From a virus (Duplodnaviria > Heunggongvirae > Uroviricota > Caudoviricetes), in the IMG/VR virus record IMGVR_UViG_2667527592_000002: 64,000 nt of DNA. The stretch is one strand, 5' to 3'. The translations under genes and the position numbers were made by a program. The notes under the pieces were generated by a model. It ran no database searches and had not been told where the DNA came from. It was given only the letters and a program-made list of their open reading frames with translations. Of the stretch, positions 1,737 to 26,151 are shown piece after piece. The first letter of the stretch is position 1; each line of letters starts with the position of its first letter.

Positions 1737-2346
1737 GAATAATTATGTTCTTCTTAATTATGCTGAATTAAACGAAAAGGGGCTGGCAAAACTCGTCAAA
1801 GAAATCAGCAAAGGTGGTTACAAGATAGCGAGGGTGATCCCTGCAAGTAATGGCAGGAAGAAAGATGGGATCATGACGCGCACGTTTACCCTTATTGGTA
1901 TTGATGAACAGACAATGGAAGTTCAGGTTAACGATACCGGCGATATATCTGGGATCAAACTGAATGGTAAAACAGTACCGTTCAAGCCAGTAAAAACAAT
2001 GTCGGCTTTGGGGCAATCTCTTGCGGCTTTATTTAATCGCGGAGCAACTTCTTTCCAGAAGTCATTAGCTCGAAAACTTGCTCGTGCAGCAAAAAATATT
2101 GATGACGGAAATAAGAAGCGGCAGGGAGTTAAATCTAACGCTCAGAAATTAGCTGAAGCGAAAGAATCACGTGATGCACTCCGTGAAGATATCGCTAATG
2201 CTAACGACAAACTGTCTAAACTCCAGAGCAAGTCAGACAAAGTAATGCAAGATACGGGTAACGTTAAAGCTGCCTTGTCTCAGGAAGTAGCTAAGACACG
2301 TGCTCTTAAAGAAGAAATCGCGCGCCTGGAGGATGAGCATGATTAA
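1726..2346 (+). CDS. hypothetical coiled-coil protein (Hdf position)
   Basis: ORF track 1711..2346; ATG at 1726 preceded by AAGGAG; C-terminal heptad-rich region. Confidence 0.3.
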   Translation: MSNKNNYVLLNYAELNEKGLAKLVKEISKGGYKIARVIPASNGRKKDGIMTRTFTLIGIDEQTMEVQVNDTGDISGIKLNGKTVPFKPVKTMSALGQSLAALFNRGATSFQKSLARKLARAAKNIDDGNKKRQGVKSNAQKLAEAKESRDALREDIANANDKLSKLQSKSDKVMQDTGNVKAALSQEVAKTRALKEEIARLEDEHD

Positions 2347-4264
2347 CAATCCTTTACGAATTAATATTCAGTCTACTTTTGCTGATACGATCCCCGGCTA
2401 TATGCCAAGTCGCTGGTCTTCAGAAGAATTAAGCGAAGATGACCTGATTTTTGAGGCGGCGACCTTAGAAGATATTGAGCTTGCCTATATGGGCAATGAA
2501 ATTCTGGTTGTGTCTGACGAAGCTATGTTTGAGTCCATAACTACAACCAGAATTCGGTTAGCTCAAACAATGCGAGCTTTCGTCCGTGCGCTGAATCGTG
2601 GCCTGAATGGTACGAATATTATGGCAGGGACTGATGAAGCTGGGACCGATGAAAATGGACGTAATTGTATTGGTGGTGCGATTATCGGTCGTGTACGTCG
2701 GGTAGCTAATATCCCTGTTTTGACCGCGCAGATACCGCTTACTGACGGGCAGAGTACAAGCATAATTTTCCACTCTCCAACAGCTGACGGGGCAAAAATA
2801 AAGAGTAACGACGAGCTTGTTGCATTTCAGTTTTTACTTAATAAGCGTAACGTAACTCACGTTGTCGCCCCGATTGGTGGGAGAGATGTTTCTTTAAGCC
2901 AGGTATGCCAGGCGCTATCTAATTTGATTGAGCGTAACAGCGAAAAATTTAAGAAAGCAAAAGAGCGCCAGGACAAAATGAAGGCAGATATTGAGAGTTA
3001 TCTCAATGAAGCAGATAAACTGGCAGAAGAACGGTCAATAATGATTGATCAGGTGGAAGTTGCGCAACGTGGGCTGACTGAAAAGCGTGCTGCTCTTACG
3101 GAGATGCAAAAAAAACTTGATGCCCAGAAAGCCATCAACGAGGAATTACAAGCAAAACGCGATAAATTGTTGTCTGCTAAAGGTGAAAAAACGAAAGAAC
3201 GAGCGTTTAGTGACCAGCTGCGACATGTAAAACATAATCTTGCCATTGACGGAAAAACAGTGCTGGATAATGGCGCTGAAGTTAATTATGTCACGTCCGG
3301 CAGTGATAATTTCGTTACGATAGTAGCACCTGAAGGTAAATTCAGTATTGATGCCAGTGCTGTCAAAGGAGGCAGTTTGGCAGATGCTGCAACCAAATTA
3401 CTTAAAGCCTACCGAGAGCATAACGCAGATAAATATAAAGTTGATGTGTTACCAGGCCAGCTGGAAGACTCCGAACTACCACAGACAGACCCCGAAACGA
3501 ACCCAGTATTACAACCAGAGAGCCAAGATGTAGGTAAATACCACTATGCACTTCAATCTCGCCCGGCTGGTGTTGGTGCTGTTCCGGATGGAAATAAAGC
3601 CGTGCTTGATCGTCCTGACCAGGCTGATCAGTATTACGAATATGCTCGTCACGGTATCATTACGTATGACCGTAAACTGACAGATGAAGAAGTCAGCCAG
3701 TACGAGTTGCTTTATCTTCCTGATGAAGATGAGCTGAAAGATTTTGCAGGCCAATTGGTTGCGTCCAGCATGTCGAAACATATTGATGGCTATGTGGACC
3801 TGTTTGGCAGTGACCTGAAAACATTCAAGGCGCAAGTGAAAATTCTTTTCCGCAAAGCGTTTCCAAACGTGGCGTATCCACTTAGTGATGGGGAGAACCT
3901 TTTCATTATGGACGTGAATAACGCCCTTCAAAATCATTCAAGCGAAGTAAAAACAGAGCATGTGGTTGAGCCAGAATCACAACCACAACCAGCACCAGAA
4001 CAGGAGTCGGAGCCAGAAGAAGCGGGTGAATCAGCAAGTGAAGCTGATCAGGAAGCAGATAAAGCGCTGGAGTACCTGAAATCCGTGCCGGAGCAGTTTA
4101 CATCCCGCGATCTGACGGTCATCAGTGCTGAACTTGATCATGTGCAGGAAGCAGCGAACGCTCTAATCAGTGCAGGTCGATACGACGAGAACGAAGCCAC
4201 TGTGGGTGCAGCAGTTGACTACCTGATCAATATTCTGGCTGAAATTCAGCAGGGAGGTGTTTAA
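2333..4264 (+). CDS. DarA-like large protein (positional and size analogy only)
   Basis: about 640 aa, central coiled coil, acidic C-terminal region; sits in lyd-dar-like operon; start 2333 or 2339 uncertain. Confidence 0.35.
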   Translation: MSMINNPLRINIQSTFADTIPGYMPSRWSSEELSEDDLIFEAATLEDIELAYMGNEILVVSDEAMFESITTTRIRLAQTMRAFVRALNRGLNGTNIMAGTDEAGTDENGRNCIGGAIIGRVRRVANIPVLTAQIPLTDGQSTSIIFHSPTADGAKIKSNDELVAFQFLLNKRNVTHVVAPIGGRDVSLSQVCQALSNLIERNSEKFKKAKERQDKMKADIESYLNEADKLAEERSIMIDQVEVAQRGLTEKRAALTEMQKKLDAQKAINEELQAKRDKLLSAKGEKTKERAFSDQLRHVKHNLAIDGKTVLDNGAEVNYVTSGSDNFVTIVAPEGKFSIDASAVKGGSLADAATKLLKAYREHNADKYKVDVLPGQLEDSELPQTDPETNPVLQPESQDVGKYHYALQSRPAGVGAVPDGNKAVLDRPDQADQYYEYARHGIITYDRKLTDEEVSQYELLYLPDEDELKDFAGQLVASSMSKHIDGYVDLFGSDLKTFKAQVKILFRKAFPNVAYPLSDGENLFIMDVNNALQNHSSEVKTEHVVEPESQPQPAPEQESEPEEAGESASEADQEADKALEYLKSVPEQFTSRDLTVISAELDHVQEAANALISAGRYDENEATVGAAVDYLINILAEIQQGGV

Positions 4265-4632
4265 TGACCATCTCTGTTTTAGACCGCCTGAAATTAGGTA
4301 AAGAGCTATCAGATCTAATGCAGGCGCAGAAAACTGCGCCAGTATTGCAACGCGTCACCATTGGTAAGCAGATTGTTGATGTGATGCTGAAATTGGGCCT
4401 GGGGACTGCCGTGCAACCGGCAGCGGAACCGCAACAACAGGCTGATCCTGTTGTAGATGAAGTCCCTAAGATAGTGACTGACTTCCTGGGCGGTGTGTTC
4501 ACAAAGTCCACACAAATGGAATTTATTGATGCGCTGCGTGGGATCTCAAACTATGTTGGCGAGTTCCTTACGTTGGAGCAGGCTAAAGAGCAGACCATAA
4601 GCTGGGTGAAAGCTAACGGTTATGCCGGGTAA
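4264..4632 (+). CDS. hypothetical protein (DdrA position)
   Basis: 122 aa, ATGA start/stop overlap with upstream gene. Confidence 0.3.
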   Translation: MTISVLDRLKLGKELSDLMQAQKTAPVLQRVTIGKQIVDVMLKLGLGTAVQPAAEPQQQADPVVDEVPKIVTDFLGGVFTKSTQMEFIDALRGISNYVGEFLTLEQAKEQTISWVKANGYAG

Positions 4633-4714: not shown

Positions 4715-6112
4715 TTGGAGTGTATTTTGAACAAATCAGTTACTTCTGCGCTTTCCGAGGCCGCAGATATTAACAGCGTCATTGCTCTGGTTTCTTCATT
4801 AGAGAGGAAAGAAACACGCCTGGGGCGAAGTAGCTACGTAGTCACCAGCAAAGGTGCAGAGGTAAAGACGGCTTTTAAGGTCGTTGATGCCAGCAGTCTG
4901 ATCATTTCGAACAACCTTGACGGTACGATTAACCCGGCCTTCCCGGAAGAACTCCAACCACGAGATCGTACCCGGCTATCCAGCAAACTCCAGGTTAACC
5001 GTATTGCCTCCAATTTACGCCCGGCACAATTAACGGATTCCGGTATGAGCAGCCACGGAGCGCCTATAGTTGGTCCGGACAACGTTGTTGAATCCGGCAA
5101 CGGAAGGAGTATGGGTATCTGGCGTGCCTATGAGCAAGGACAGGCGGATGAGTATCGCCAGTACCTGATCGACCATGCGAAAGAGTTTGGTCTGAATCCT
5201 GACGAAATTTCGCAAATGTCTATGCCCGTACTGGTGCGAGAAAGACTCACAGATGTAGACCGCGCTCAATTTGCCCGCGATTCAAACATTAGTGATCTGC
5301 AAGAGATGGCAGCAAGTGAAAAAGCGTATGCGGATGCGCAATTTCTCACTGAGAGTGTCATGGCGCTATTTAATCCTTCAGATGATGGAAATCTGCTGGC
5401 GCGGTCCAATGATGCGTTTATTCGTGCGTTTTTGCGCGAAATTGGCGATACAGCGACGGCAGGCTTGCTTACTGCCGATGGGCGTCCCACGAAACAGCTT
5501 ATCGATCGCATCCAGAATGCAATTTTTGCCAAAGCGTACAAGGATGAAAGGCTTGTTAGGCTGGTGTCGGAAGAGCCAGATCCGGAAATGCGTAATATCC
5601 TGACCGCATTAAATACGGCAGCCAGCGATTTTGCGCAAATGCAGTCGCTGTCTGGCGACGCTCACCATGACGCAGTAACAGGCTTAGTGGACGGTATAGA
5701 GCAGGTTAATGGCCTGGATACACAGGCGATAGCAGCACTCCAAGAAGCAATTAATCTTGTACGTGAAGCCAAAGACAACGGTCAGGCCGTTGAAGAAGTG
5801 ATCGCCCAAAGGGGGTTATTCGGCGACAGTACACCGGAAGCTGAGGCATTGGCGTTATTCATCGTAGCAAATAATCGCAGTGCGAAGCGTATGGGGGCAG
5901 CATTCAAAAAAATGGCGCAAAAAATCAACGACGAGCTGACTCATAAACAACAGGCATTGGGCGATATGTTCGGCGGTGGCGATGTTGATCTGCGTCGTAT
6001 TTTGTCTGCTGTATCTGATGAAATTGAGGGTGAATTTGGCGAAGGGAAAGGTCTGAACTTTGCTATGTTTGAAAATTCTACAGATCTAAATAATTGCCGT
6101 ACGGAAAACTAA
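4715..6112 (+). CDS. ParB/Srx-like N-terminal domain protein (DdrB position)
   Basis: motifs ...EELQPRDR... and ...VESGNGRSMGIWRA... resemble ParB box I/II (QPR and GxxRxxA); alternative start likely. Confidence 0.4.
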   Translation: MECILNKSVTSALSEAADINSVIALVSSLERKETRLGRSSYVVTSKGAEVKTAFKVVDASSLIISNNLDGTINPAFPEELQPRDRTRLSSKLQVNRIASNLRPAQLTDSGMSSHGAPIVGPDNVVESGNGRSMGIWRAYEQGQADEYRQYLIDHAKEFGLNPDEISQMSMPVLVRERLTDVDRAQFARDSNISDLQEMAASEKAYADAQFLTESVMALFNPSDDGNLLARSNDAFIRAFLREIGDTATAGLLTADGRPTKQLIDRIQNAIFAKAYKDERLVRLVSEEPDPEMRNILTALNTAASDFAQMQSLSGDAHHDAVTGLVDGIEQVNGLDTQAIAALQEAINLVREAKDNGQAVEEVIAQRGLFGDSTPEAEALALFIVANNRSAKRMGAAFKKMAQKINDELTHKQQALGDMFGGGDVDLRRILSAVSDEIEGEFGEGKGLNFAMFENSTDLNNCRTEN

Positions 6113-6176
6113 ACCAACCGCTGAAATCACATACTGATTATGCTGCCGCAAAACTGGAAACAATTTGCGGTGATTC

Positions 6177-11584: not shown

Positions 11585-11609
11585 GCCCCGGCCTGGCCGG
11601 GGCTTTTTT
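11585..11609. terminator. bidirectional hairpin terminator
   Basis: gccccggcctggccggggc + TTTTTT between convergent genes. Confidence 0.6.
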
Positions 11610-12094
11610 CATGCCTCATTAGTTGAGGTTGCTGCGTCTCCGACTGGTAACAGCGCGGTATTGCGTGGTTCGCCAGCAGGCCAGCGATAGCCAGACACTC
11701 TTGATGTTGGGAATGCGCGAATATTAACCGCATCCCCCTGGTTCCCACCCAAGACAAGCAGATCGCCATTGGCGCGGCGTCCGACAACGAAGCCTACGTG
11801 CCCACCGCCTACGCGGGTAAATACAACGATACATCCGTATGCCGGTGTATCTAATTTCTCGCCCCAATCCAGATAGGATTTTGCCGACTCAAATCTTGTT
11901 GAGCGGATGCCTACACGTTCCAGCATTGCACCGACAAATGCTGCGCACCACGGCGTTTCATCGTCTTTAATTCCGCCGCGCTTGATGTCGCGCCAGAACT
12001 GAACGATTTCAGGGTTGTGTTTAGCGCCTTTTATTTCAGTCAGGCCAATGTGCTTACGGGCTTCAATTAGCCAGCGAGGTTCAATGTTTGCCAT
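11609..12094 (-). CDS. CHAP / NlpC-P60-like cell-wall peptidase
   Basis: ...TPWCAAFVGAML... Cys nucleophile context and ...GGGHVGFVVG... His motif; 161 aa. Confidence 0.55.
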   Translation of the reverse strand: MANIEPRWLIEARKHIGLTEIKGAKHNPEIVQFWRDIKRGGIKDDETPWCAAFVGAMLERVGIRSTRFESAKSYLDWGEKLDTPAYGCIVVFTRVGGGHVGFVVGRRANGDLLVLGGNQGDAVNIRAFPTSRVSGYRWPAGEPRNTALLPVGDAATSTNEA

Positions 12095-12244
12095 ATTTTT
12101 CTCCCGGTCATGGGTTAATAAGTAGGCAAACTATGGGGAGTATGTGATTTTGACGGTAGTATCGTCCCCCTGAAAATAACATTCTCCATACCCTCTCAAC
12201 CGTACCGCATAGCGGAATTTTTACGGTTTAGAGGGGGAAATCCT

Positions 12245-15200
12245 TTGGACAAACTACTTCATTCAATCAGTGAAGCCTCCAGCTTAGGCGAACTGATTGA
12301 AATTGTTAGTCGGTTGCATAAATTACGTGCTGTTGCGACCTTTGGCGTCAGGAAAGCCGATGGCGTCAGTATTCAGAAAACACGCCGGGCAGCAAACAAC
12401 GCCGCAGTAAATCTTCTTAATTCCCTTCCGCCCGGCTTCGATGGGGCGAAATTAACTGACGAACAACGTCAGATTCTTGCCGGGTATACCGGTGAAGGTG
12501 GCCTGACAGATGGTGAGGGCAGCCAATACGAATACTACACGCCACAGTTTATGGCTGAAGGTATATGGGATCTGTTTGCTGACTACGGTATTGATGGTGG
12601 GCACGTACTGGAACCATCAGCGGGCACAGGTATTTTCCAGGAGACAAAACGGCAGGGCATGATAATGACCAGCGCCGAACTGTCTCCGATTTCCGGTCGA
12701 ATAAACCAGCTTTTGCACCCGGAAGACGATGTGAATATCGGGGCGTTTGAGGCGCTGGCGGCGAAAGACGCAATGTATGACCACGCTGTTGGTAACGTAC
12801 CGTTTGGTGAAGGGCGTTCCGGCGTTGCCGGGCTTGATCCGGCATATGCAAACGAGAAGAACGTTGGCAATTACTTTGTGTTGCGCACGATCGACAAGGT
12901 TAAGCCTGGTGGACTAATTGTATTGGTGGTGCCGAATGGCATGACCGATGGTACGAAATACAAAAAATTGCGCGATAAAGTCAGCCGTAAAGCGGAATTT
13001 TTGGGCGCACATCGTATGCCTTCTGGTACGTTCAGCGAATCCGGTACAGATACCGTGGTGGACGTATGGGTATTGCGTAAACACCCGGAAACCTTCCTGG
13101 AGATGATCCCCGACACGGATGATGCAACGCTCAAATCGGCAAACGTCCTTTGGGATACCTTCCTCAAAGGGAAATGGTTTACAACCGAAGGGAAGCGATT
13201 TGTTTACGGCGACATGGAACGCACCAGCTTCCGCAATACCCTGGTGGTGAAAAAGGATGGTCGTGTATCCAATGAGTCGATGAAAACCGCGCTATCTCGT
13301 CGCTTTGATAGTCGCATCAATTGGGATTTGCTCGGCGTAACTACTCAGGCATGGCAGGGCGCGAAAGTGGGCGATAAACGCCTTGTAGGCGGTATCTGGC
13401 ATGAGTTTGATGGCCTGAAATGGGTTAAGGACACGACAACCAAATCCTCCGCGCTTGATGTAAGTCGATATGGTGTTTCGACGTTTGGCGATCTGCAGAT
13501 CGCGTTCCAGTCAACAAACGGGATTCTGGCTTTGTCATGGGACCAGATATCGGCGATCGCGTCCGACTATCCATCGGTTGTCAGTGATGAAGTGGCAGCA
13601 ATGATTCGCTTTGCTGGCAAGCAGCGAGAAAAAGACAGGGAGCGCGTTATGCGCGGTGCGCTGATAGGTCAGTTGATCAACAAGGCACTTGATTTGCGTA
13701 ACCTGGGTGTGAACGTTGATGACAAACTGGCAGATGCATCCCGCCTGGCGGCAGCAGAAGTTGCGAAGTATGGACCACCGCACGCGATTAAGCTGAATGG
13801 GCTTGCTGAAGCTGGCGCTAAAAACTGGATGACGTTCACTGGCAATGTGAAACAGGATGGTTCCACTTCTGACCTTCTGGCAGGGCGACTTGATGTAACG
13901 GATGGTGCTGCCGGTATTGACTTTACCCGTCCTGAACAAGTGATAGCACATCTTTTCAGTGATGTAGCCCTTAATCCTATAACGCTGGGAGACTTTCGTG
14001 AGGCGTTTGCTGGTGAACTGCCAGAGGACGACGACGCGGCCCTTGAATTCCTGGCGAAATTTGATGATATCGCTATTGATGGGTATGGCTGCCTGCTGCC
14101 GATGGACCGCGCCACCAGCGGCGATATTGCAACCAAAACAGCATTGCTGGTGGGCTGGCGTGATGCGTCAATAGGTGAGCAGAAAGCGAACTTTGAGCGT
14201 CAGTTGGCGAAAATCGAAGAGAAACGCATTTTCACGCCACTAAATAAAGTCACCGTTAATCTGAACGCCCGCTGGCTGGATCGCCGCTTGATAAAAGAGT
14301 TCCTGGCAGAGCAGGGCTATGACGAGTTTAAGTACACTGAACCTGATCTGAAGGTCGTCGATGGCATTCTGGTATCTCCGGACGATTACGAAGGTAAGGA
14401 CGGGGTATTTACCGGCTATCAGCTACGAACCGTAAACGGCAAAAACGGGAATGAGTTCAAGAAGGCCAACAATAAAGACGGCTTCCTGAACCAGTTAGAA
14501 AACTACCTGAACGGCGTCAAACCGCGCGGGCAGAACGCTAACGAGTACCTGGATAAGATTGCTCAACTTGAAGTTAGCTTTAACGACTGGTTACGCACTC
14601 ACCCGCAGGCTGATCAGATAGCCCGTGACTATAACGACGCATTCAATGGTTTCATTCCGTTCACGCATTCTGACGCACCGCTTGGCCTGGAAGGGCTTAG
14701 TGGAAAGCGCATTCCTCTTACTTATCAGAATGAAGAAGTTCGGCGCTTGTCAGAAGATGGGCGCGGCATCATGGGATTTGGTACCGGGCTGGGTAAAACC
14801 ACGACCGCGCTTGCGCTTGAGGCGTATAACTTCGAAACAGGTCGCACTAAACGCACGTGTATTGTTGTTCCGAAGGCGGTTTATCAGAACTGGTATCACG
14901 AGGCACAGAGTTTCTACAGTGCTGATGCCTTCGCCAATATGATGTTTATCGGTTTGGATGAAGTTCGTGATGACAGCGGAAATATTCTGACCGCGCCGGT
15001 GCTTGATGAAAATGGCGAACCACGCCTCGACAGTAACGGGCAGCCTCTTACCAGAAATGTTGTGAAAGAGTCCGCCAGCGCCGTTATCGTTCAGCGCATG
15101 AACATGATCCCGTCGTCAAATTGGCGAACGGTCATCATGACAAAAGAACAATTCGCGTCTATCCCGCTACGAGAAAAAACCATCGAGGAGAACTCACAGC

Positions 15201-18200
15201 AAGCTGTCTTTAATGCTGTGGAAATGGGGCGTCTTGACCTGGCGTCCGGTAAACACCGTGATGCGCAGAAGAAGAACAAGATTAAGGATCAGGCCGCGAA
15301 TACCGGTACAACGAAGAAGCAGAATATCCCGTACTTTGAGGATATGAACTTCGATAGCGTGATTGCCGACGAGGGGCATAACTACCGCAACTCCTTTAAT
15401 GCCGGGCGTGAAGCGGGACAACTGGCATATTTGCCTAATCCGGCAGTATCCAAGATGGCCCGCGACATGGCTGTAAAAGCTGCGTACATGATGAAACGCA
15501 ACAACGGGCGTGGTGTAGTCATGCTGACGGCAACTCCGCTGGTGAACAGTCCGATTGATGCCTTCAACATGCTGTCTACTGTCATTCCGCAGGAAGAGTG
15601 GATGCGCATGGGCATCATTACGCCTGATGATTTCGTTCGTGTGTTTGGCAAAACAGCCACAGTTCAGGTCCAGAAAATTTCCGGGGAAGTGGAAGAGAAG
15701 CAGGGGCTGGTGGGCTTCCAGAACCTTGACGGCCTGCGTGGTATTTTCCATCGTTGGACCACTCTGAAGACTGCTGCAGATGTCGGAGCGACGGTTAAAA
15801 TTCCCGACATCATTGAGAACACCTTGCAGATCCCGATGACAGGGGAGCAGGAGACTGCTTATGAAGAGCTTCGTAAGCGTGCTCAGGAGTTAAGTCGCAA
15901 TGATGAGCTGACAGTCGATGAAAACGGGCATATCACTAACGACAAACCAGATGATTTCATCTTCTCCATCATCCGTGACATGGACAAGGTTGCTATAGAC
16001 CCGGATCTGTATGCCAGTGCGATTACATTCCAGTTCCCCGTTGAGCTTGCAGACCAGGTAAAAGCTATTGCTGATGCCTTGCCAAAAGTAGCTGGCGGTA
16101 AAGTGGCAGATGATGTTGATGAGGCCGAGGAAGACGGCGCTGGCGGGCTGGTCAGTACGCGTACCAGCAAGGTAGTGAAGACCGCTTTTAGTGAACATCC
16201 GACGCATGTTGAAATACGTGCCAGCATTGAACTGGAAGCTGAAATACTGAAGGCCATTGCGGCTGCCGGTATTGATATGCAGCAGGTATCGCACCCCATC
16301 CCGCCGAAGTATGCCGCGCTGATCGAAAATCTTCGTGAAGGTCTGAAGAACGGTAAGCAGATCGTCTTTATTGATGAAAAAGCCCAGCACCAGAAGCTGC
16401 GCCGTATTATCGCCAGTGCACTGCAAATGCCGGAGCAGGAGATTGGCATTATCAATGCGACGACAGTTAGCCAGGCTGGCGGCATCAAGCTGAAGAAGGT
16501 GAATAAGCCGACCGAACCTACTCCAAACAAAAACGGTGAATACAAAGAAGGGGCATGGGAAACCTACTACAGCAAACTTGCACAATATGAGGATTATCTC
16601 TCAGCTAAAAATGATGCTGGCCTTGAGGGCATGGAAGGTATTGCCGCCGACTATAACGAAGGTCGCACGCGCATCATAATCTGTAACAAGAAGGCTGAAG
16701 TAGGTATTAACCTGCACATCGGGACAACCGATATCCATCACCTGACACTACCCTGGACACCAGCCAGTATCGACCAACGAAATGGGCGCGGTGCGCGCGT
16801 AGGTTCACCGCAAGAAAAGGTCAATGTTCACTACTATTGTGGCAAAGGCACATTCGATGACTTCCGTCTGGATACGCTGAAACGTAAGAAAGACTGGATC
16901 AAGATGGTGATGACATCCGACATGTCAGAGATCGCCAATGGTGATGCAGATGATGCTGATGAACGCGCCATTATGCTGGCGGCAAACCCGGAAGAACGCC
17001 GCGCAATCATGGCTCGCCAGGCGCAAGAGCGTGAAGAACGTCTGAAACTGAAAGCACAGCGCGAGGCCAACAATGCTCTCGATATCTACCTGAAAGCGGC
17101 AAACGCCGCCGGAAAAGATATCGGCATGATGGAGACAGAACTGAAAAGCGCGATGGAACAGATAGAGTATTACCAGCGCAATCTTGACGACCTGATAAAA
17201 GCGGGTACGAACAGGAATGGGCAAAAATACGCGCTTGAGCAGTTGAGTAGCTACAGAAAACGTGCGCGGGTGCTGCGGTTTGCGATCACCATGGCAAAAG
17301 ACGCGGATACCATAATGAAACGCTCTCGTGGTGATGTGGAGCGCGCTATTAAGTCTGGTGTGCTGGATATCAGTATCGATGTTATTCAGAACCCACAGGA
17401 ATATATGCGCACTGACAAGAATATCCTGTTGCATAAAGGTAGTTATTACCGTGCAGTCATTGATGATCGCGAAACAACAGCGATTGTCCGGGTGGAAAAA
17501 ATTGACGGTGAAAAAGCACAATACATCTGCCGTATCGCCTGGCTGGATAGAGCAAGTCGTTACGCTCGATCACCGGGGTCAATCGTTACATTGCCGTTTG
17601 ACTCTGTGATTGAAGCGGTAACTTTTGAAGAGGGGGTTGCTGAATCACGCGCAACGGCTGCGCGTGGTGTTCAGTGCCACCAGCTATCAACAATACTTAC
17701 TCGCGATCAGTTCTATGATGCTATTCGCAATGGGGTAATGAATGTTATTGCTGGTAAACCTGGTAATGCATGGGGCGGTGGATCAGCTATTAAATACTGG
17801 GCCTATCGCACAGATGATGGGCAGATCGCGCTGTCATCGACCTATGATGGCGTGATAGGCCAACAAATCGGGCGAGCATCGGATATAGCACCTGAACGAT
17901 GGATATATCCTGATGGCAACGACGAGGCGCTGAAGCGTGAAGTGGCAAAAATACAAGCCAGTGATAACCCGCTGAATATCGTGGACGGAGAGGGATTCCT
18001 CCAGGCATTGTATGGGTATGATTACATCCAGGGAATGCAGGCATGGGGCGCACAAGCGACGATGGATGATGTTGCCCAGGAGTTCGAAAACTGGATGGCT
18101 GGGCGTGGTCTGTCAGGTCGTTCGCTTAATAAAGTCACTTCTGAAGATATTCTTAGCTTGTTCCGTAAACCGTCCGGAGAAGGTCTGGAATCATTCTGGA

Positions 18201-19081
18201 GGACCGTGCTGGCATACCGTTTATTCCAGGGCAGGATGAAAGCCTTTAGCAATATCGATGATATTGAACGGATGTTTAATCAGGTCAAGATCGCGAAAAT
18301 TAAGGCGAAGATCGAAAAAACACGTTCTGCGCTGGTGGCCTGGCGCGATGCATTGTTTGAGCAATATAAATCACTCAGTGATGCAGATGGATGGGCGGCG
18401 CTGGAACAGTTGGCGAATAATGGGGTAGATGGAGCGAAACTCGCCATTGTCCAGGCTGATAACCCCCTGGAATCACCGGCAGCACAGTGGATTAAGGTGG
18501 GGGCTGTCATCAATGCATTTGATGAAAAACACATTAGTAAGGACGATTTTGCTGATGCTGTTTCTGTTAATCGCCTGGTAGAAATGGCTACCCGCCGCGC
18601 CCGTGAGTTGAAAGATGGCGACTATGTGAATGAGTTGCCGGATACGCTCAAATCGGCAACGTGGCAGGACTATGTATCGCTGAAAAACGGCGGGGCCACT
18701 GAATCAGAAATCGCGGAAAGGCTTGAGCAGGCTGAAAGCAAAAGAGAAGAGCAGGCGGCAGTGGCTGAAGCCAGAGCTGATGAAGCGGCAAATGATGACT
18801 ATATCATTGTGGTTAATGATAAGCCGATTCGCGCTAAGGCGCGTGTTCGCGGGCGCTGGTGGAGCGTCAGCGAGGACGTTGGCGCGGTTTATCTCATTGC
18901 CGACCAACCAGGTTCCTCGACAATAAGGAACGCCAAAGACGCGATTAAGAAGATTGGCGGGCGTTTCTGGAATTTTGAAGTGAATCCGGTCGCGGATGTG
19001 GACTTTGACCGTCCGGCGTGGATGGTATCTACGCGTTACTCGGTAGATGAACTGCGTAAAATAATCGCCGATGCGGCCTAA
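12245..19081 (+). CDS. darB: DarB-like giant antirestriction protein: N6-adenine methyltransferase + DExH/SNF2-type helicase
   Basis: 2278 aa; MTase motif I VLEPSAGTGIF and motif IV-like GNVPFG; helicase motifs GFGTGLGKTTTAL, VIADEGHNYRN, LTATPLVNS, IDQRNGRGARVG; TTG start. Confidence 0.8.
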   Translation: MDKLLHSISEASSLGELIEIVSRLHKLRAVATFGVRKADGVSIQKTRRAANNAAVNLLNSLPPGFDGAKLTDEQRQILAGYTGEGGLTDGEGSQYEYYTPQFMAEGIWDLFADYGIDGGHVLEPSAGTGIFQETKRQGMIMTSAELSPISGRINQLLHPEDDVNIGAFEALAAKDAMYDHAVGNVPFGEGRSGVAGLDPAYANEKNVGNYFVLRTIDKVKPGGLIVLVVPNGMTDGTKYKKLRDKVSRKAEFLGAHRMPSGTFSESGTDTVVDVWVLRKHPETFLEMIPDTDDATLKSANVLWDTFLKGKWFTTEGKRFVYGDMERTSFRNTLVVKKDGRVSNESMKTALSRRFDSRINWDLLGVTTQAWQGAKVGDKRLVGGIWHEFDGLKWVKDTTTKSSALDVSRYGVSTFGDLQIAFQSTNGILALSWDQISAIASDYPSVVSDEVAAMIRFAGKQREKDRERVMRGALIGQLINKALDLRNLGVNVDDKLADASRLAAAEVAKYGPPHAIKLNGLAEAGAKNWMTFTGNVKQDGSTSDLLAGRLDVTDGAAGIDFTRPEQVIAHLFSDVALNPITLGDFREAFAGELPEDDDAALEFLAKFDDIAIDGYGCLLPMDRATSGDIATKTALLVGWRDASIGEQKANFERQLAKIEEKRIFTPLNKVTVNLNARWLDRRLIKEFLAEQGYDEFKYTEPDLKVVDGILVSPDDYEGKDGVFTGYQLRTVNGKNGNEFKKANNKDGFLNQLENYLNGVKPRGQNANEYLDKIAQLEVSFNDWLRTHPQADQIARDYNDAFNGFIPFTHSDAPLGLEGLSGKRIPLTYQNEEVRRLSEDGRGIMGFGTGLGKTTTALALEAYNFETGRTKRTCIVVPKAVYQNWYHEAQSFYSADAFANMMFIGLDEVRDDSGNILTAPVLDENGEPRLDSNGQPLTRNVVKESASAVIVQRMNMIPSSNWRTVIMTKEQFASIPLREKTIEENSQQAVFNAVEMGRLDLASGKHRDAQKKNKIKDQAANTGTTKKQNIPYFEDMNFDSVIADEGHNYRNSFNAGREAGQLAYLPNPAVSKMARDMAVKAAYMMKRNNGRGVVMLTATPLVNSPIDAFNMLSTVIPQEEWMRMGIITPDDFVRVFGKTATVQVQKISGEVEEKQGLVGFQNLDGLRGIFHRWTTLKTAADVGATVKIPDIIENTLQIPMTGEQETAYEELRKRAQELSRNDELTVDENGHITNDKPDDFIFSIIRDMDKVAIDPDLYASAITFQFPVELADQVKAIADALPKVAGGKVADDVDEAEEDGAGGLVSTRTSKVVKTAFSEHPTHVEIRASIELEAEILKAIAAAGIDMQQVSHPIPPKYAALIENLREGLKNGKQIVFIDEKAQHQKLRRIIASALQMPEQEIGIINATTVSQAGGIKLKKVNKPTEPTPNKNGEYKEGAWETYYSKLAQYEDYLSAKNDAGLEGMEGIAADYNEGRTRIIICNKKAEVGINLHIGTTDIHHLTLPWTPASIDQRNGRGARVGSPQEKVNVHYYCGKGTFDDFRLDTLKRKKDWIKMVMTSDMSEIANGDADDADERAIMLAANPEERRAIMARQAQEREERLKLKAQREANNALDIYLKAANAAGKDIGMMETELKSAMEQIEYYQRNLDDLIKAGTNRNGQKYALEQLSSYRKRARVLRFAITMAKDADTIMKRSRGDVERAIKSGVLDISIDVIQNPQEYMRTDKNILLHKGSYYRAVIDDRETTAIVRVEKIDGEKAQYICRIAWLDRASRYARSPGSIVTLPFDSVIEAVTFEEGVAESRATAARGVQCHQLSTILTRDQFYDAIRNGVMNVIAGKPGNAWGGGSAIKYWAYRTDDGQIALSSTYDGVIGQQIGRASDIAPERWIYPDGNDEALKREVAKIQASDNPLNIVDGEGFLQALYGYDYIQGMQAWGAQATMDDVAQEFENWMAGRGLSGRSLNKVTSEDILSLFRKPSGEGLESFWRTVLAYRLFQGRMKAFSNIDDIERMFNQVKIAKIKAKIEKTRSALVAWRDALFEQYKSLSDADGWAALEQLANNGVDGAKLAIVQADNPLESPAAQWIKVGAVINAFDEKHISKDDFADAVSVNRLVEMATRRARELKDGDYVNELPDTLKSATWQDYVSLKNGGATESEIAERLEQAESKREEQAAVAEARADEAANDDYIIVVNDKPIRAKARVRGRWWSVSEDVGAVYLIADQPGSSTIRNAKDAIKKIGGRFWNFEVNPVADVDFDRPAWMVSTRYSVDELRKIIADAA

Positions 19082-19117: not shown

Positions 19118-19552
19118 ATGACGACATTAATTGACACTGTAAAACCGACGGAATCCTACCTTGAGGACATTTTGCCGCAGGCGCTCAATGGCAGGAGTGA
19201 AGAGGCGTTTCTGGATGCATATCTGAATGGCATGGTGGAAAGGCTGAAACGAGATCCACAGCTTTATCACCTTTATGGGCCGTGGTGGCCTGCGCTTAAA
19301 ACGTTATTGCTGGAGCGCGGCGACATATCATTTGGACAAGTTGTAGATAGTGATGTGGCAGAGATCTACAAAATGAGTCGCCCGGCGCTTACGGTTTTGG
19401 CTGGGCATCTGTATTCGAGCGATCGCCTGGAAAATGACGCGGTATACAATCCCGTTCATGCTCTGGAAGTCGCACCTTATGCTGATGATACAGAGCCATA
19501 CGTGTACACAAGTTACGACGAGTCTATAGAGAAATATCGAATCATGGGGTAG
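19118..19552 (+). CDS. hypothetical protein
   Basis: 144 aa ORF directly after DarB-like gene. Confidence 0.3.
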   Translation: MTTLIDTVKPTESYLEDILPQALNGRSEEAFLDAYLNGMVERLKRDPQLYHLYGPWWPALKTLLLERGDISFGQVVDSDVAEIYKMSRPALTVLAGHLYSSDRLENDAVYNPVHALEVAPYADDTEPYVYTSYDESIEKYRIMG

Positions 19553-19951: not shown

Positions 19952-20446
19952 TTGTTGTTATTATTTCGCATATTTACTATCAATAGGTATGTTAGAAAAA
20001 TATCGCGAAAGAGAAGGCGTCGCAGTGAATATTCTGAAACATCCCCACATGCCGCAGCTCTTAGAGAACTGGAGAAAAACCCAGATCTAATCAAAAGGAA
20101 CCATGAGCATTACGAGCAGGTTCGCGTCCTGGACTGGTTGTATCGCAATATGCGTTATGTGTATGAGCATACTCACGCCACTCCAAACGGTGGCCTGCGA
20201 GGCATAAGGACGGCAATAAAAATGGTGGCAGAGGGCCAAAAGAAGGGATATCCCGATCTTTCTATAGACCTTGCTTGTGGGGGATACCACGGAATGCGCA
20301 TTGAGATGAAACATGGGAGAAATCGCCTGACTCCCGAACAACTCGTCTGGATGACCCGCCTCACTGAAGCCGGTTACTACTGCTTTGAGGCGCGCAGTGC
20401 CGCTGAAGCCATAAAAGCTATCACGGAGTATGTTTGTCTTGATTAA
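19952..20446 (+). CDS. VRR-NUC domain nuclease (start uncertain)
   Basis: ...KKGYPDLSIDLACGGYHGMRIEMKHGRNRLTPEQLVWMTRLTEAGYYCF...; PD-(D/E)xK-type motif. Confidence 0.6.
   Translation: MLLLFRIFTINRYVRKISRKRRRRSEYSETSPHAAALRELEKNPDLIKRNHEHYEQVRVLDWLYRNMRYVYEHTHATPNGGLRGIRTAIKMVAEGQKKGYPDLSIDLACGGYHGMRIEMKHGRNRLTPEQLVWMTRLTEAGYYCFEARSAAEAIKAITEYVCLD
19988..20000 (+). promoter_or_regulatory. TGTTAGAAAA-type recurrent motif
   Basis: tatgttagaaaaa. Confidence 0.4.
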
Positions 20447-23513: not shown

Positions 23514-23589
23514 GATGGTGTAGCTCAGCGGTTAGAGCGGTTGACTGTTAATCAACGGGTCGATGGTTCAAATCCATCCACCATCGCCA
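23514..23589 (+). tRNA. tRNA-Asn (anticodon GTT)
   Basis: 76 nt cloverleaf folded by hand; acceptor GATGGTG/CACCATC, T-loop TTCAAAT, anticodon loop CTGTTAA, encoded CCA. Confidence 0.9.
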
Positions 23590-23591
23590 AT

Positions 23592-23667
23592 GCCGGTTTA
23601 GCTCAGTTGGTAGAGCGCCTGCCTTGTAAGCAGGATGTCAGCGGTTCGAGTCCGTTAACCGGCACCA
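23592..23667 (+). tRNA. tRNA-Thr (anticodon TGT)
   Basis: 76 nt; acceptor GCCGGTT/AACCGGC, D-arm GCTCAGTTGGTAGAGC, anticodon loop CTTGTAA, CCA. Confidence 0.9.
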
Positions 23668-24337: not shown

Positions 24338-24424
24338 GGAGAGTAGGGAGCATGGTGCTCAAGCGGTCTTGAAAACCGTCCCATTGCGCAAGCGATGATG
24401 GTTCGATTCCATTACTCTCCGCCA
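24338..24424 (+). tRNA. tRNA-Ser-like (anticodon TGA), long variable arm, atypical D-arm
   Basis: acceptor GGAGAGT/ACTCTCC, anticodon arm GCGGTCTTGAAAACCGT, T-loop TTCGATT, CCA; D-arm non-canonical. Confidence 0.6.
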
Positions 24425-25045: not shown

Positions 25046-25121
25046 GGCCCTTTAGCTCAGTGGTTAGAGCAGGCGACTCATAATCGCACGGTCACCGGTT
25101 CAAATCCGGTAGGGGCCACCA
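25046..25121 (+). tRNA. tRNA-Ile2-like (anticodon CAT, lysidine type) or tRNA-Met
   Basis: 76 nt; near-identical arms to E. coli ileX as recalled: GGCCCTTTAGCTCAGTGGTTAGAGCAGGCGACTCATAATCGC... Confidence 0.9.
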
Positions 25122-25575: not shown

Positions 25576-26151
25576 ATGTTAATGGCGAACGATAACGCAT
25601 ATGCAGAAGAAGATCTCATTTTGAGTGACTTCATAGGGAAGCGGGAACGCTGGACCCAAAAGCGAGAGGAACTTTACGCCTCATTAGTTCGCAAAGGCGT
25701 CAATATCGAAACCGCACAAAGCGGCGATATGACAGTGGTAAGCGTTGGATTGCACGGTGTAAGCGTGTCAGCAATCAATCATGAGCCATACGTTGCGTTA
25801 TCCGAGTCAATGGTAAGGTTAGTTAAGTTCCTGAAGTACACAGAAGCGAATAATGTAATCATTGGCAAAAAGAATATCCCTTTTTCCTCGGCTTTTTACT
25901 GGATGATGAAAGGGCTTGATGCCCGGCGGACATCATGGCCTAAAGGGAGCTATATATCGATGTTCCGTGGCAGCATTGGCAGCAAAGAAAAGCTCTTCGA
26001 ATTCTTGCCGGAAGAGGCATTCGATATTGTGGAAGGGTGCGATGTGATGGTGATGCCTCGCCTGGTAATGATGAATGGGGATTTACAGGCGCAGACAGAC
26101 TGGTTTGCAACTGGTGTGGATATTATCGCGACTGACTGGGAGGCTTTCTGA
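25576..26151 (+). CDS. hypothetical protein with DUF2829-like C-terminal region
   Basis: ...AFYWMMKGLDARRTSWPKGSYISM...QTDWFATGVDIIATDWEAF. Confidence 0.35.
   Translation: MLMANDNAYAEEDLILSDFIGKRERWTQKREELYASLVRKGVNIETAQSGDMTVVSVGLHGVSVSAINHEPYVALSESMVRLVKFLKYTEANNVIIGKKNIPFSSAFYWMMKGLDARRTSWPKGSYISMFRGSIGSKEKLFEFLPEEAFDIVEGCDVMVMPRLVMMNGDLQAQTDWFATGVDIIATDWEAF

Follow-up and report, generated by a model that had tools for sequence, protein, structure and literature searches.

The 64,000-nucleotide (nt) stretch of DNA analyzed here, IMG/VR virus record IMGVR_UViG_2667527592_000002 (Caudoviricetes), is referred to as the window, and it contains a full coding sequence for an orthologue of DarB, an antirestriction protein of phage P1. 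The gene lies on the plus strand at 12245-19081 and encodes 2278 amino acids (aa) followed by a stop codon. The chance probability of an uninterrupted reading frame of 2278 codons is approximately 3e-48. The TTG at 12245 is the earliest start available downstream of the preceding stop codon, and a ribosome site, GAGGGGG, is located 8 nt 5' of it. The TTG start is supported by P1 DarB, to which the protein aligns from its first residue onward. In a preliminary description, this open reading frame (ORF) had been read as a DarB-like fusion of an N6-adenine methyltransferase and a helicase, and every motif quoted there was recovered at its claimed place. On the methyltransferase side, these were motif I, VLEPSAGTGIF (aa 121-131, nt 12605-12637), and motif IV, GNVPFG (aa 183-188, nt 12791-12808). 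The helicase set comprised Walker A, GTGLGKT (aa 846-852, nt 14780-14800), motif II, DEGH (aa 1042-1045, nt 15368-15379), motif III, TATP (aa 1095-1098, nt 15527-15538), and motif VI, QRNGRGAR (aa 1511-1518, nt 16775-16798). SNF2-rel_dom (E 2.8e-12), ResIII, and Helicase_C were the Pfam families above their cut-offs in the ORF product, while N6_Mtase scored exactly its cut-off (20.4 bits) and Eco57I fell under its own.

Alignment to P1 DarB had been proposed as a check on this reading. Using BLASTP, P1 DarB (AAQ13985.1, 2255 aa) gave a single alignment, collinear and spanning the protein from its first residue to its last, with 943 identities in 2370 columns (40%, E = 0), covering every 100-aa block of the protein; the likeness is therefore not limited to generic motifs, and the resemblance in size and architecture was borne out. 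The identity was unevenly distributed, being 50-55% in the methyltransferase part, 29-46% in the middle region, 47-69% in the helicase core blocks, and 19-25% from residue 1600 onward. The catalytic motifs of P1 DarB are identical to those found here, including GNVPFG.

The nearest relative of the gene was found in Escherichia phage D6. A megablast comparison gave 98.5% nucleotide identity over 100% of the gene length to D6 (MF356679.1, 12283-19119), where the counterpart is orf15 (D6_15, ASR76325.1), annotated in GenBank as 'defense against restriction; similar to P1 gene darB'. The D6 protein is likewise 2278 aa long and shares 2257 of the 2278 residues; among the 21 differences, 12 are located in the final 30% of the protein. 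The flanks are also the same, with a divergent CHAP hydrolase gene upstream and ulx and orf13 downstream. The 12 kb upstream of darB showed 97% identity to D6, and the window overall 97-98.5%. Moreover, a near-identical full-length copy was found in at least 113 PLSDB plasmids, mostly of E. coli and Salmonella, under the labels 'SNF2-related protein' or 'DEAD/DEAH box helicase family protein'. The exact protein is RefSeq WP_044869642.1, which lies on a 92-kb contig and is one of 4384 sequences clustered at 90% identity. Given the D6 identity, the PLSDB copies, and the RefSeq entry, the window is assigned to a D6-like, P1-related phage-plasmid of E. coli, with the gene as its darB. The gene is thus already known, as a darB homologue is annotated in D6 and the identical protein is deposited in RefSeq. 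Since darB homology was recognized when phage D6 was sequenced, little is added by the locus alone; what the generic RefSeq labels do is mask an antirestriction function in thousands of phage-plasmids of E. coli and Salmonella.

The domain map of the protein follows the plus strand from 12245. Residues 1-30 (12245-12334) occupy the position of the capsid-targeting sequence of P1 DarB, where eight of the 30 residues are those of P1 (M1, K3, L4, S12, S13, E16, R28, and A29), and two short helices were predicted by AlphaFold2 (AF2); a targeting role of this segment is presumed. It is followed by a helical module at aa 43-95 (12371-12529) with the G-E-G-G signature of the GxGU motif, matching LPD36 as described for DarB-type proteins by Iyer et al. 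2017 (PMC5512222), an assignment made by description and not by a hidden Markov model (HMM). Residues G83, G85, and G86 of this module were invariant in the homologue alignment. The gamma-class (HsdM/TaqI-like) N6-adenine DNA methyltransferase spans aa 96-300 (12530-13144) and contains the TP motif EYYTP (12530-12544) in addition to motifs I and IV. The solved structures nearest to this domain are type I HsdM subunits, including EcoKI HsdM. A conserved middle region of mixed beta and helical character, with no assigned fold, occupies aa 301-815 (13145-14689). Next, the SNF2-type superfamily 2 (SF2) ATPase/translocase extends over aa 816-1540 (14690-16864), as indicated by Pfam and by its invariant motifs, and the family-specific C-terminal third covers aa 1541-2278 (16865-19078). 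An N-terminal gamma-class methyltransferase with TP motif, motif I, and motif IV, and a central SNF2-type ATPase with complete motifs I, II (DExH), III, and VI, are both traits of P1-type DarB, and both were found here.

A whole-protein search yielded 1266 relatives at E <= 1e-10, and the top ones were proteins of 2200-2320 aa from Enterobacterales and Aeromonas, encoded on contigs 80-100 kb in length. Conservation was evaluated in an alignment of 33 of these homologues with 36-96% identity to the query. In the methyltransferase, E96-Y-Y-T-P100, L122-E-P-x-x-x-x-G129, and, in motif IV, G183-N-V-P-F-G188 apart from V185 (with N184, P186, and F187 its catalytic core) were invariant; in the ATPase, the same applied to T847-G-x-G-K851, D1042-E-x-H1045, A1096-T-P1098, and Q1511-R-N-G-R-G-A-R1518. 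The ratio of nonsynonymous to synonymous divergence (dN/dS) of darB was 0.075 against D6 and 0.12 against locus L004 of a 96%-identical relative (P0013), corresponding to strong purifying selection. Because both catalytic core sets are unchanged in the 33 homologues and dN/dS is as low as 0.075, the methyltransferase and ATPase activities are both judged to be strongly selected.

Motif IV requires separate consideration, as the preliminary description had regarded GNVPFG as atypical and as a possible sign of altered specificity. This view did not survive comparison. P1 DarB also has GNVPFG, position 185 is valine in 32 of the 33 homologues and isoleucine in the remaining one, and NVPF is therefore the family norm, which makes it uninformative on any change of specificity relative to P1. 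Altered specificity arising from an unusual motif IV was accordingly rejected. A related proposal is that the methyltransferase is catalytically degenerate, given that NVPF replaces NPPF or NPPY, the second position departs from canonical (D/N/S)PP(Y/F/W), and the Pfam N6_Mtase match barely reaches its threshold. The family profile, however, places NVPF on TNPPFG of EcoKI HsdM, the catalytic asparagine, proline, and aromatic phenylalanine never vary, and neither the S-adenosylmethionine (SAM)-binding motif I nor the TP motif is damaged. Among adenine methyltransferases, Erm and KsgA function with N-(I/L)-P-Y, so that an aliphatic residue at the second position of motif IV is compatible with catalysis, and enzymes of both kinds occur among the structural neighbours of the domain. 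Degeneracy is thus considered improbable.

The C-terminal third was predicted by AF2 with a predicted local distance difference test (pLDDT) score of 84.5. It is laid out as a long helical hairpin (~1582-1703), a beta-rich part (~1720-1865), a helical part (~1894-2180), and a small alpha/beta end (~2186-2277). No informative match was obtained for it in the PDB or in viral models, and a word-indexed search with the C-terminus alone returned near-identical fragments and nothing further. An exhaustive HMMER search of 1.84 billion representatives with a C-terminal profile matched 182 clusters, and in nearly all of them the match was at the C-terminus of proteins of 2000-2500 aa or of fragments thereof. 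By tblastn, the region was found in P1-like phages only. The divergence that had been noted for the C-terminus was confirmed by its low identity to P1, whereas its replacement was not: when the D6-like and P1-like clades were compared by hhalign, every C-terminal segment was collinear and homologous with a probability of 97-99.9%. A swapped-in foreign domain was thereby ruled out. As a separate observation, four proteins of 212-220 aa with a Met start (P0239, P0244, P0245, and P0249) consist of just an 'FGxxY...YG' motif and the DarB terminal alpha/beta domain; these may be either independent genes or the wrongly called ends of longer ones.

Within the C-terminal third, a mosaic patch was identified at aa 1641-1800 (17165-17644, plus strand) by comparison with the 96%-identical relative. 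The identity was 100% over most of the first 1100 residues and fell to 65-78% at aa 1681-1800. Synonymous divergence (pS) in the patch was 0.58, compared with 0.07 in aa 1-1180, which is approximately eightfold higher, and dN/dS was 0.27. Positive selection on the patch was ruled out by the raised pS and this dN/dS value, and the same two values point to recombination between D6-like lineages as the source of the variation. The fast-evolving C-terminal third probably supplies contacts to a partner or target. An unlikely further proposition is that residues ~1640-2180, which diverge fastest and are reshuffled through recombination in D6-like phage-plasmids, select the restriction systems neutralized and that a D6-type DarB together with a short DdrB gives a spectrum unlike that of P1. 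If it were true, exchanging C-termini would retarget DarB.

All six Dar genes, namely hdf, darA, ddrA, ddrB, darB, and ulx, are present in the window, each on the plus strand. The hdf orthologue (1711-2346) shows 39% identity to P1 Hdf, with a PHROG Hdf-like match and Pfam DarA_N. The darA orthologue (2300-4264) shows 39% identity to P1 DarA (E 2e-140) with both DarA_N and DarA_C, and the ddrA orthologue (4264-4632) shows 32% identity to P1 DdrA (E 4e-22) with a PHROG DdrA-like match. The ddrB orthologue (4715-6112) is of half length and retains the ParB-like N-terminal half, being 64% identical to the first ~440 aa of P1 DdrB (Pfam ddrB-ParB, E 2.6e-42). According to the annotation of the P1 record, the half that is missing here is a possible metallopeptidase; the L004 relative encodes DdrB of the same short form. 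Compared with D6, a segment of ~1.08 kb that contains orf24 and orf23 in D6 is missing from the window at 6113-6176, where ddrB is followed by the portal gene prt; L004 lacks this segment as well. As in P1, ulx follows darB directly (19118-19552, 144 aa) and is 46% identical to P1 Ulx (E 7e-45), with the PHROG 'Ulx-like anti-restriction' match at E 2e-59.

The darB neighbours belong to phage morphogenesis, replication, and the Dar set. Upstream, a CHAP-domain peptidoglycan hydrolase similar to the lysozyme portion of baseplate hub proteins is encoded divergently on the minus strand (11609-12094); on the downstream side of darB, a pmgM-like ORF (19952-20446, plus strand) contains a VRR-NUC nuclease domain. 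Because a strong bidirectional terminator (11585-11603) and the divergent CHAP gene separate darB from the upstream operon, darB-ulx-orf13 looks like a transcription unit of its own. Candidate promoter elements were found at 12142-12177 on the plus strand, where ATGTGATTT-N6-TAGTAT (12142-12162) overlaps a weak sigma-70-like site, TTGACG-16-GAAAAT. The P1 late-promoter boxes were read from the annotated P1 record and the sigma-70-like site from a consensus scan; ATGTGATTT has one mismatch to AAGTGAYTT, the -22 box of P1 late promoters, and this region could be the darB promoter. Farther downstream, four tRNA genes were detected by ARAGORN, all on the plus strand: Asn-gtt (23514-23589), Thr-tgt (23592-23667), Ser-tga (24338-24424), and Met/cat (25046-25121). 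In the D6 GenBank record, the Asn, Thr, and Ser tRNAs are not placed on the darB strand but on the other one, and the D6 stretch compared has no annotation for the fourth. Beyond them, a 191-aa ORF (25576-26151; 'hypothetical protein orf6' in D6) has a Tad2-like (Thoeris anti-defense 2-like) domain with a Pfam E of 1.1e-9 and 39 bits against a cut-off of 25, and it may be a second anti-defense gene.

Type I target sites in the window comprise 5 EcoKI, 13 EcoBI, and 2 EcoAI sites, none inside darB; with such sites present, the phage genome needs protection. Chi sites (GCTGGTGG) numbered 43 in 64 kb on both strands against ~2 expected by chance, and 6 of them are within darB, at 14112, 14146, 15706, 17677, 18331, and 18855.

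In P1, the Dar system consists of six virion proteins, of which DarB is the last loaded and depends on the others (PMC9024508, PMC12810830). Mass spectrometry of virions revealed P1 DarB at ~40 copies, the N-terminal 30 aa of the protein are enough to bring a reporter into the capsid, and Ulx and DdrB assist its loading (PMC9024508). P1 DarB is listed against EcoK and EcoB, while EcoA protection is credited to DdrA/DarA (PMC9024508), and Dar protection acts solely in cis, on the DNA of the same particle (PMC12707154). With the homology to P1 DarB, the identity to D6 orf15, the adjoining ulx, and the presence of hdf, darA, ddrA, and ddrB, the candidacy of the protein for virion-delivered antirestriction was upheld: we assign a probability of about 85% to its being a DarB orthologue with that role. 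A 250-kDa DarB would be produced in lytic growth and would enter the prohead via its N-terminal targeting segment, aided by the co-encoded Hdf/DarA scaffold, DdrB, and Ulx. Ejected with the DNA, it would shield the same molecule in cis from EcoKI/EcoBI-type type I restriction. Tens of copies may load on the entering duplex, and the SNF2-type motor may track along it using ATP. In keeping with the methylase and SNF2 translocase model of Iyer et al. (PMC5512222), the HsdM-like methyltransferase might modify adenines en route, and/or the motor might evict or stall translocating restriction complexes, so that the genome would be past danger before cutting by type I enzymes. This is the likeliest mechanism, but its specific step of translocating and methylating is put forward only tentatively, at less than even odds.

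Several points weigh against this account. For both this phage and D6, packaging and the restriction phenotype are inferred from P1 orthology. In the region of the capsid-targeting sequence, the agreement with P1 is limited to the eight residues given above, and residues 6-10, which are important in P1, differ. DdrB has 465 aa here against ~994 aa in P1, and nothing matches the C-terminal half of the P1 protein. The exact P1 late-promoter box (AAGTGAYT) was not found upstream of darB, and its 4 matches in the window are no more than chance would give. Neither DNA methylation nor ATP hydrolysis has been demonstrated for any DarB, and reviews describe the mechanism as undefined (PMC12707154, PMC9009780, PMC11109961). 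A single methyltransferase specificity does not easily explain protection from both EcoKI and EcoBI, whose sites are unrelated; non-specific methylation would be expected to cover EcoAI too, yet in P1 the protection from EcoA is credited to DdrA/DarA. Moreover, the anti-EcoKI effect of cloned P1 darB was traced not to the protein but to the plasmid DNA, in which Chi sites and EcoKI sites triggered restriction alleviation (PMC11109961).

The same protein, delivered in the same manner, may instead protect the DNA without methylating it, either by sitting on the duplex as a roadblock or shield or by using its motor to remove or halt type I complexes. In a variant of this explanation, the HsdM-like domain engages type IA restriction subunits, with the active site dispensable or serving only to bind DNA or SAM. 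It was the cis-only action that gave rise to the occlusion hypothesis (PMC12707154), and interference with restriction assembly has also been proposed (PMC9009780). P1 specificity tracks the restriction family (EcoK/EcoB versus EcoA) and not the target sequence, and EcoKI HsdM is the closest solved sequence relative of the methyltransferase domain, although that similarity is weak (24 bits) and generic to gamma-class enzymes. The invariance of N184, P186, F187, E123, P124, and G129 in the 33 homologues is hard to square with dispensable catalysis, and ~40 copies are too few to coat a 90-kb genome. Protection without methylation is the main rival and is regarded as only slightly less probable than the translocate-and-methylate step.

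Two further explanations would move the protein away from antirestriction. As a prophage module for defense or epigenetic control, it would be expressed in the lysogen, as with DISARM, BREX, or type ISP systems. A weak sigma-70-like site is present upstream of darB, LlaBIII, DrdV, MmeI, and PglX are among the structural neighbours, and weak partial HMM matches were obtained to the helicases DrmD, ZorD, DpdE, and BrxHII. The matches in the defense libraries (PADLOC, NCBIfam) are nevertheless partial, sub-threshold, and confined to helicase motifs, with DrmD scoring 44 bits where its cut-off is 610 and DpdE 31 where it is 500, which does not place the protein in DISARM, BREX, or type ISP. The protein has no nuclease domain, no partner defense genes adjoin it, and its orthology and synteny are with P1 darB-ulx, P1 DarB being a virion protein (PMC9024508). 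Such a module is extremely unlikely. It is also very unlikely that the protein acts foremost in virion structure or DNA ejection, being an internal head protein or pilot protein with an influence on head filling or transduction and antirestriction secondary. The size of the head is set by DarA and Hdf, and P1 may have its large head to accommodate the Dar cargo (PMC12810830), but invariant enzyme motifs are unexpected in a purely structural protein.

The preferred reading as a DarB orthologue can finally be compared with known systems. Relative to type I restriction-modification, the likeness to HsdM (EcoKI M protein, PDB 2ar0/2y7c) is confined to the catalytic domain at 17-18% identity, and the protein has neither an HsdS-type specificity subunit nor HsdR and is instead fused to an SNF2 motor. 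The module order is the same as in the methylase-SNF2 dyad of polyvalent proteins from phages and conjugative elements (Iyer et al. 2017, PMC5512222), with a helical GxG(G/A/S) module, the TP motif, an EcoKI/TaqI-like methyltransferase, and a SWI2/SNF2 ATPase common to both. The dyad group is quoted with an NPP(Y/F) motif IV whereas DarB here has NVPF, and the present protein adds a P1-type C-terminal module limited to ~182 clusters. Compared with P1 itself, the start codon is TTG instead of ATG. The P1 darB gene is oriented divergently to prt and pro, a pair found here at a distance of 4 kb upstream and on the darB strand, and no EcoP1 res/mod genes are present downstream of darB in the window, unlike in P1. 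The D6/P1 pair, least alike over the C-terminal third and in how long DdrB is, thus offers natural chimera partners for studying the DarB mechanism; beyond chimera use, the locus makes that mechanism no more testable than P1 does. These differences from P1 leave every testable DarB-defining feature intact.

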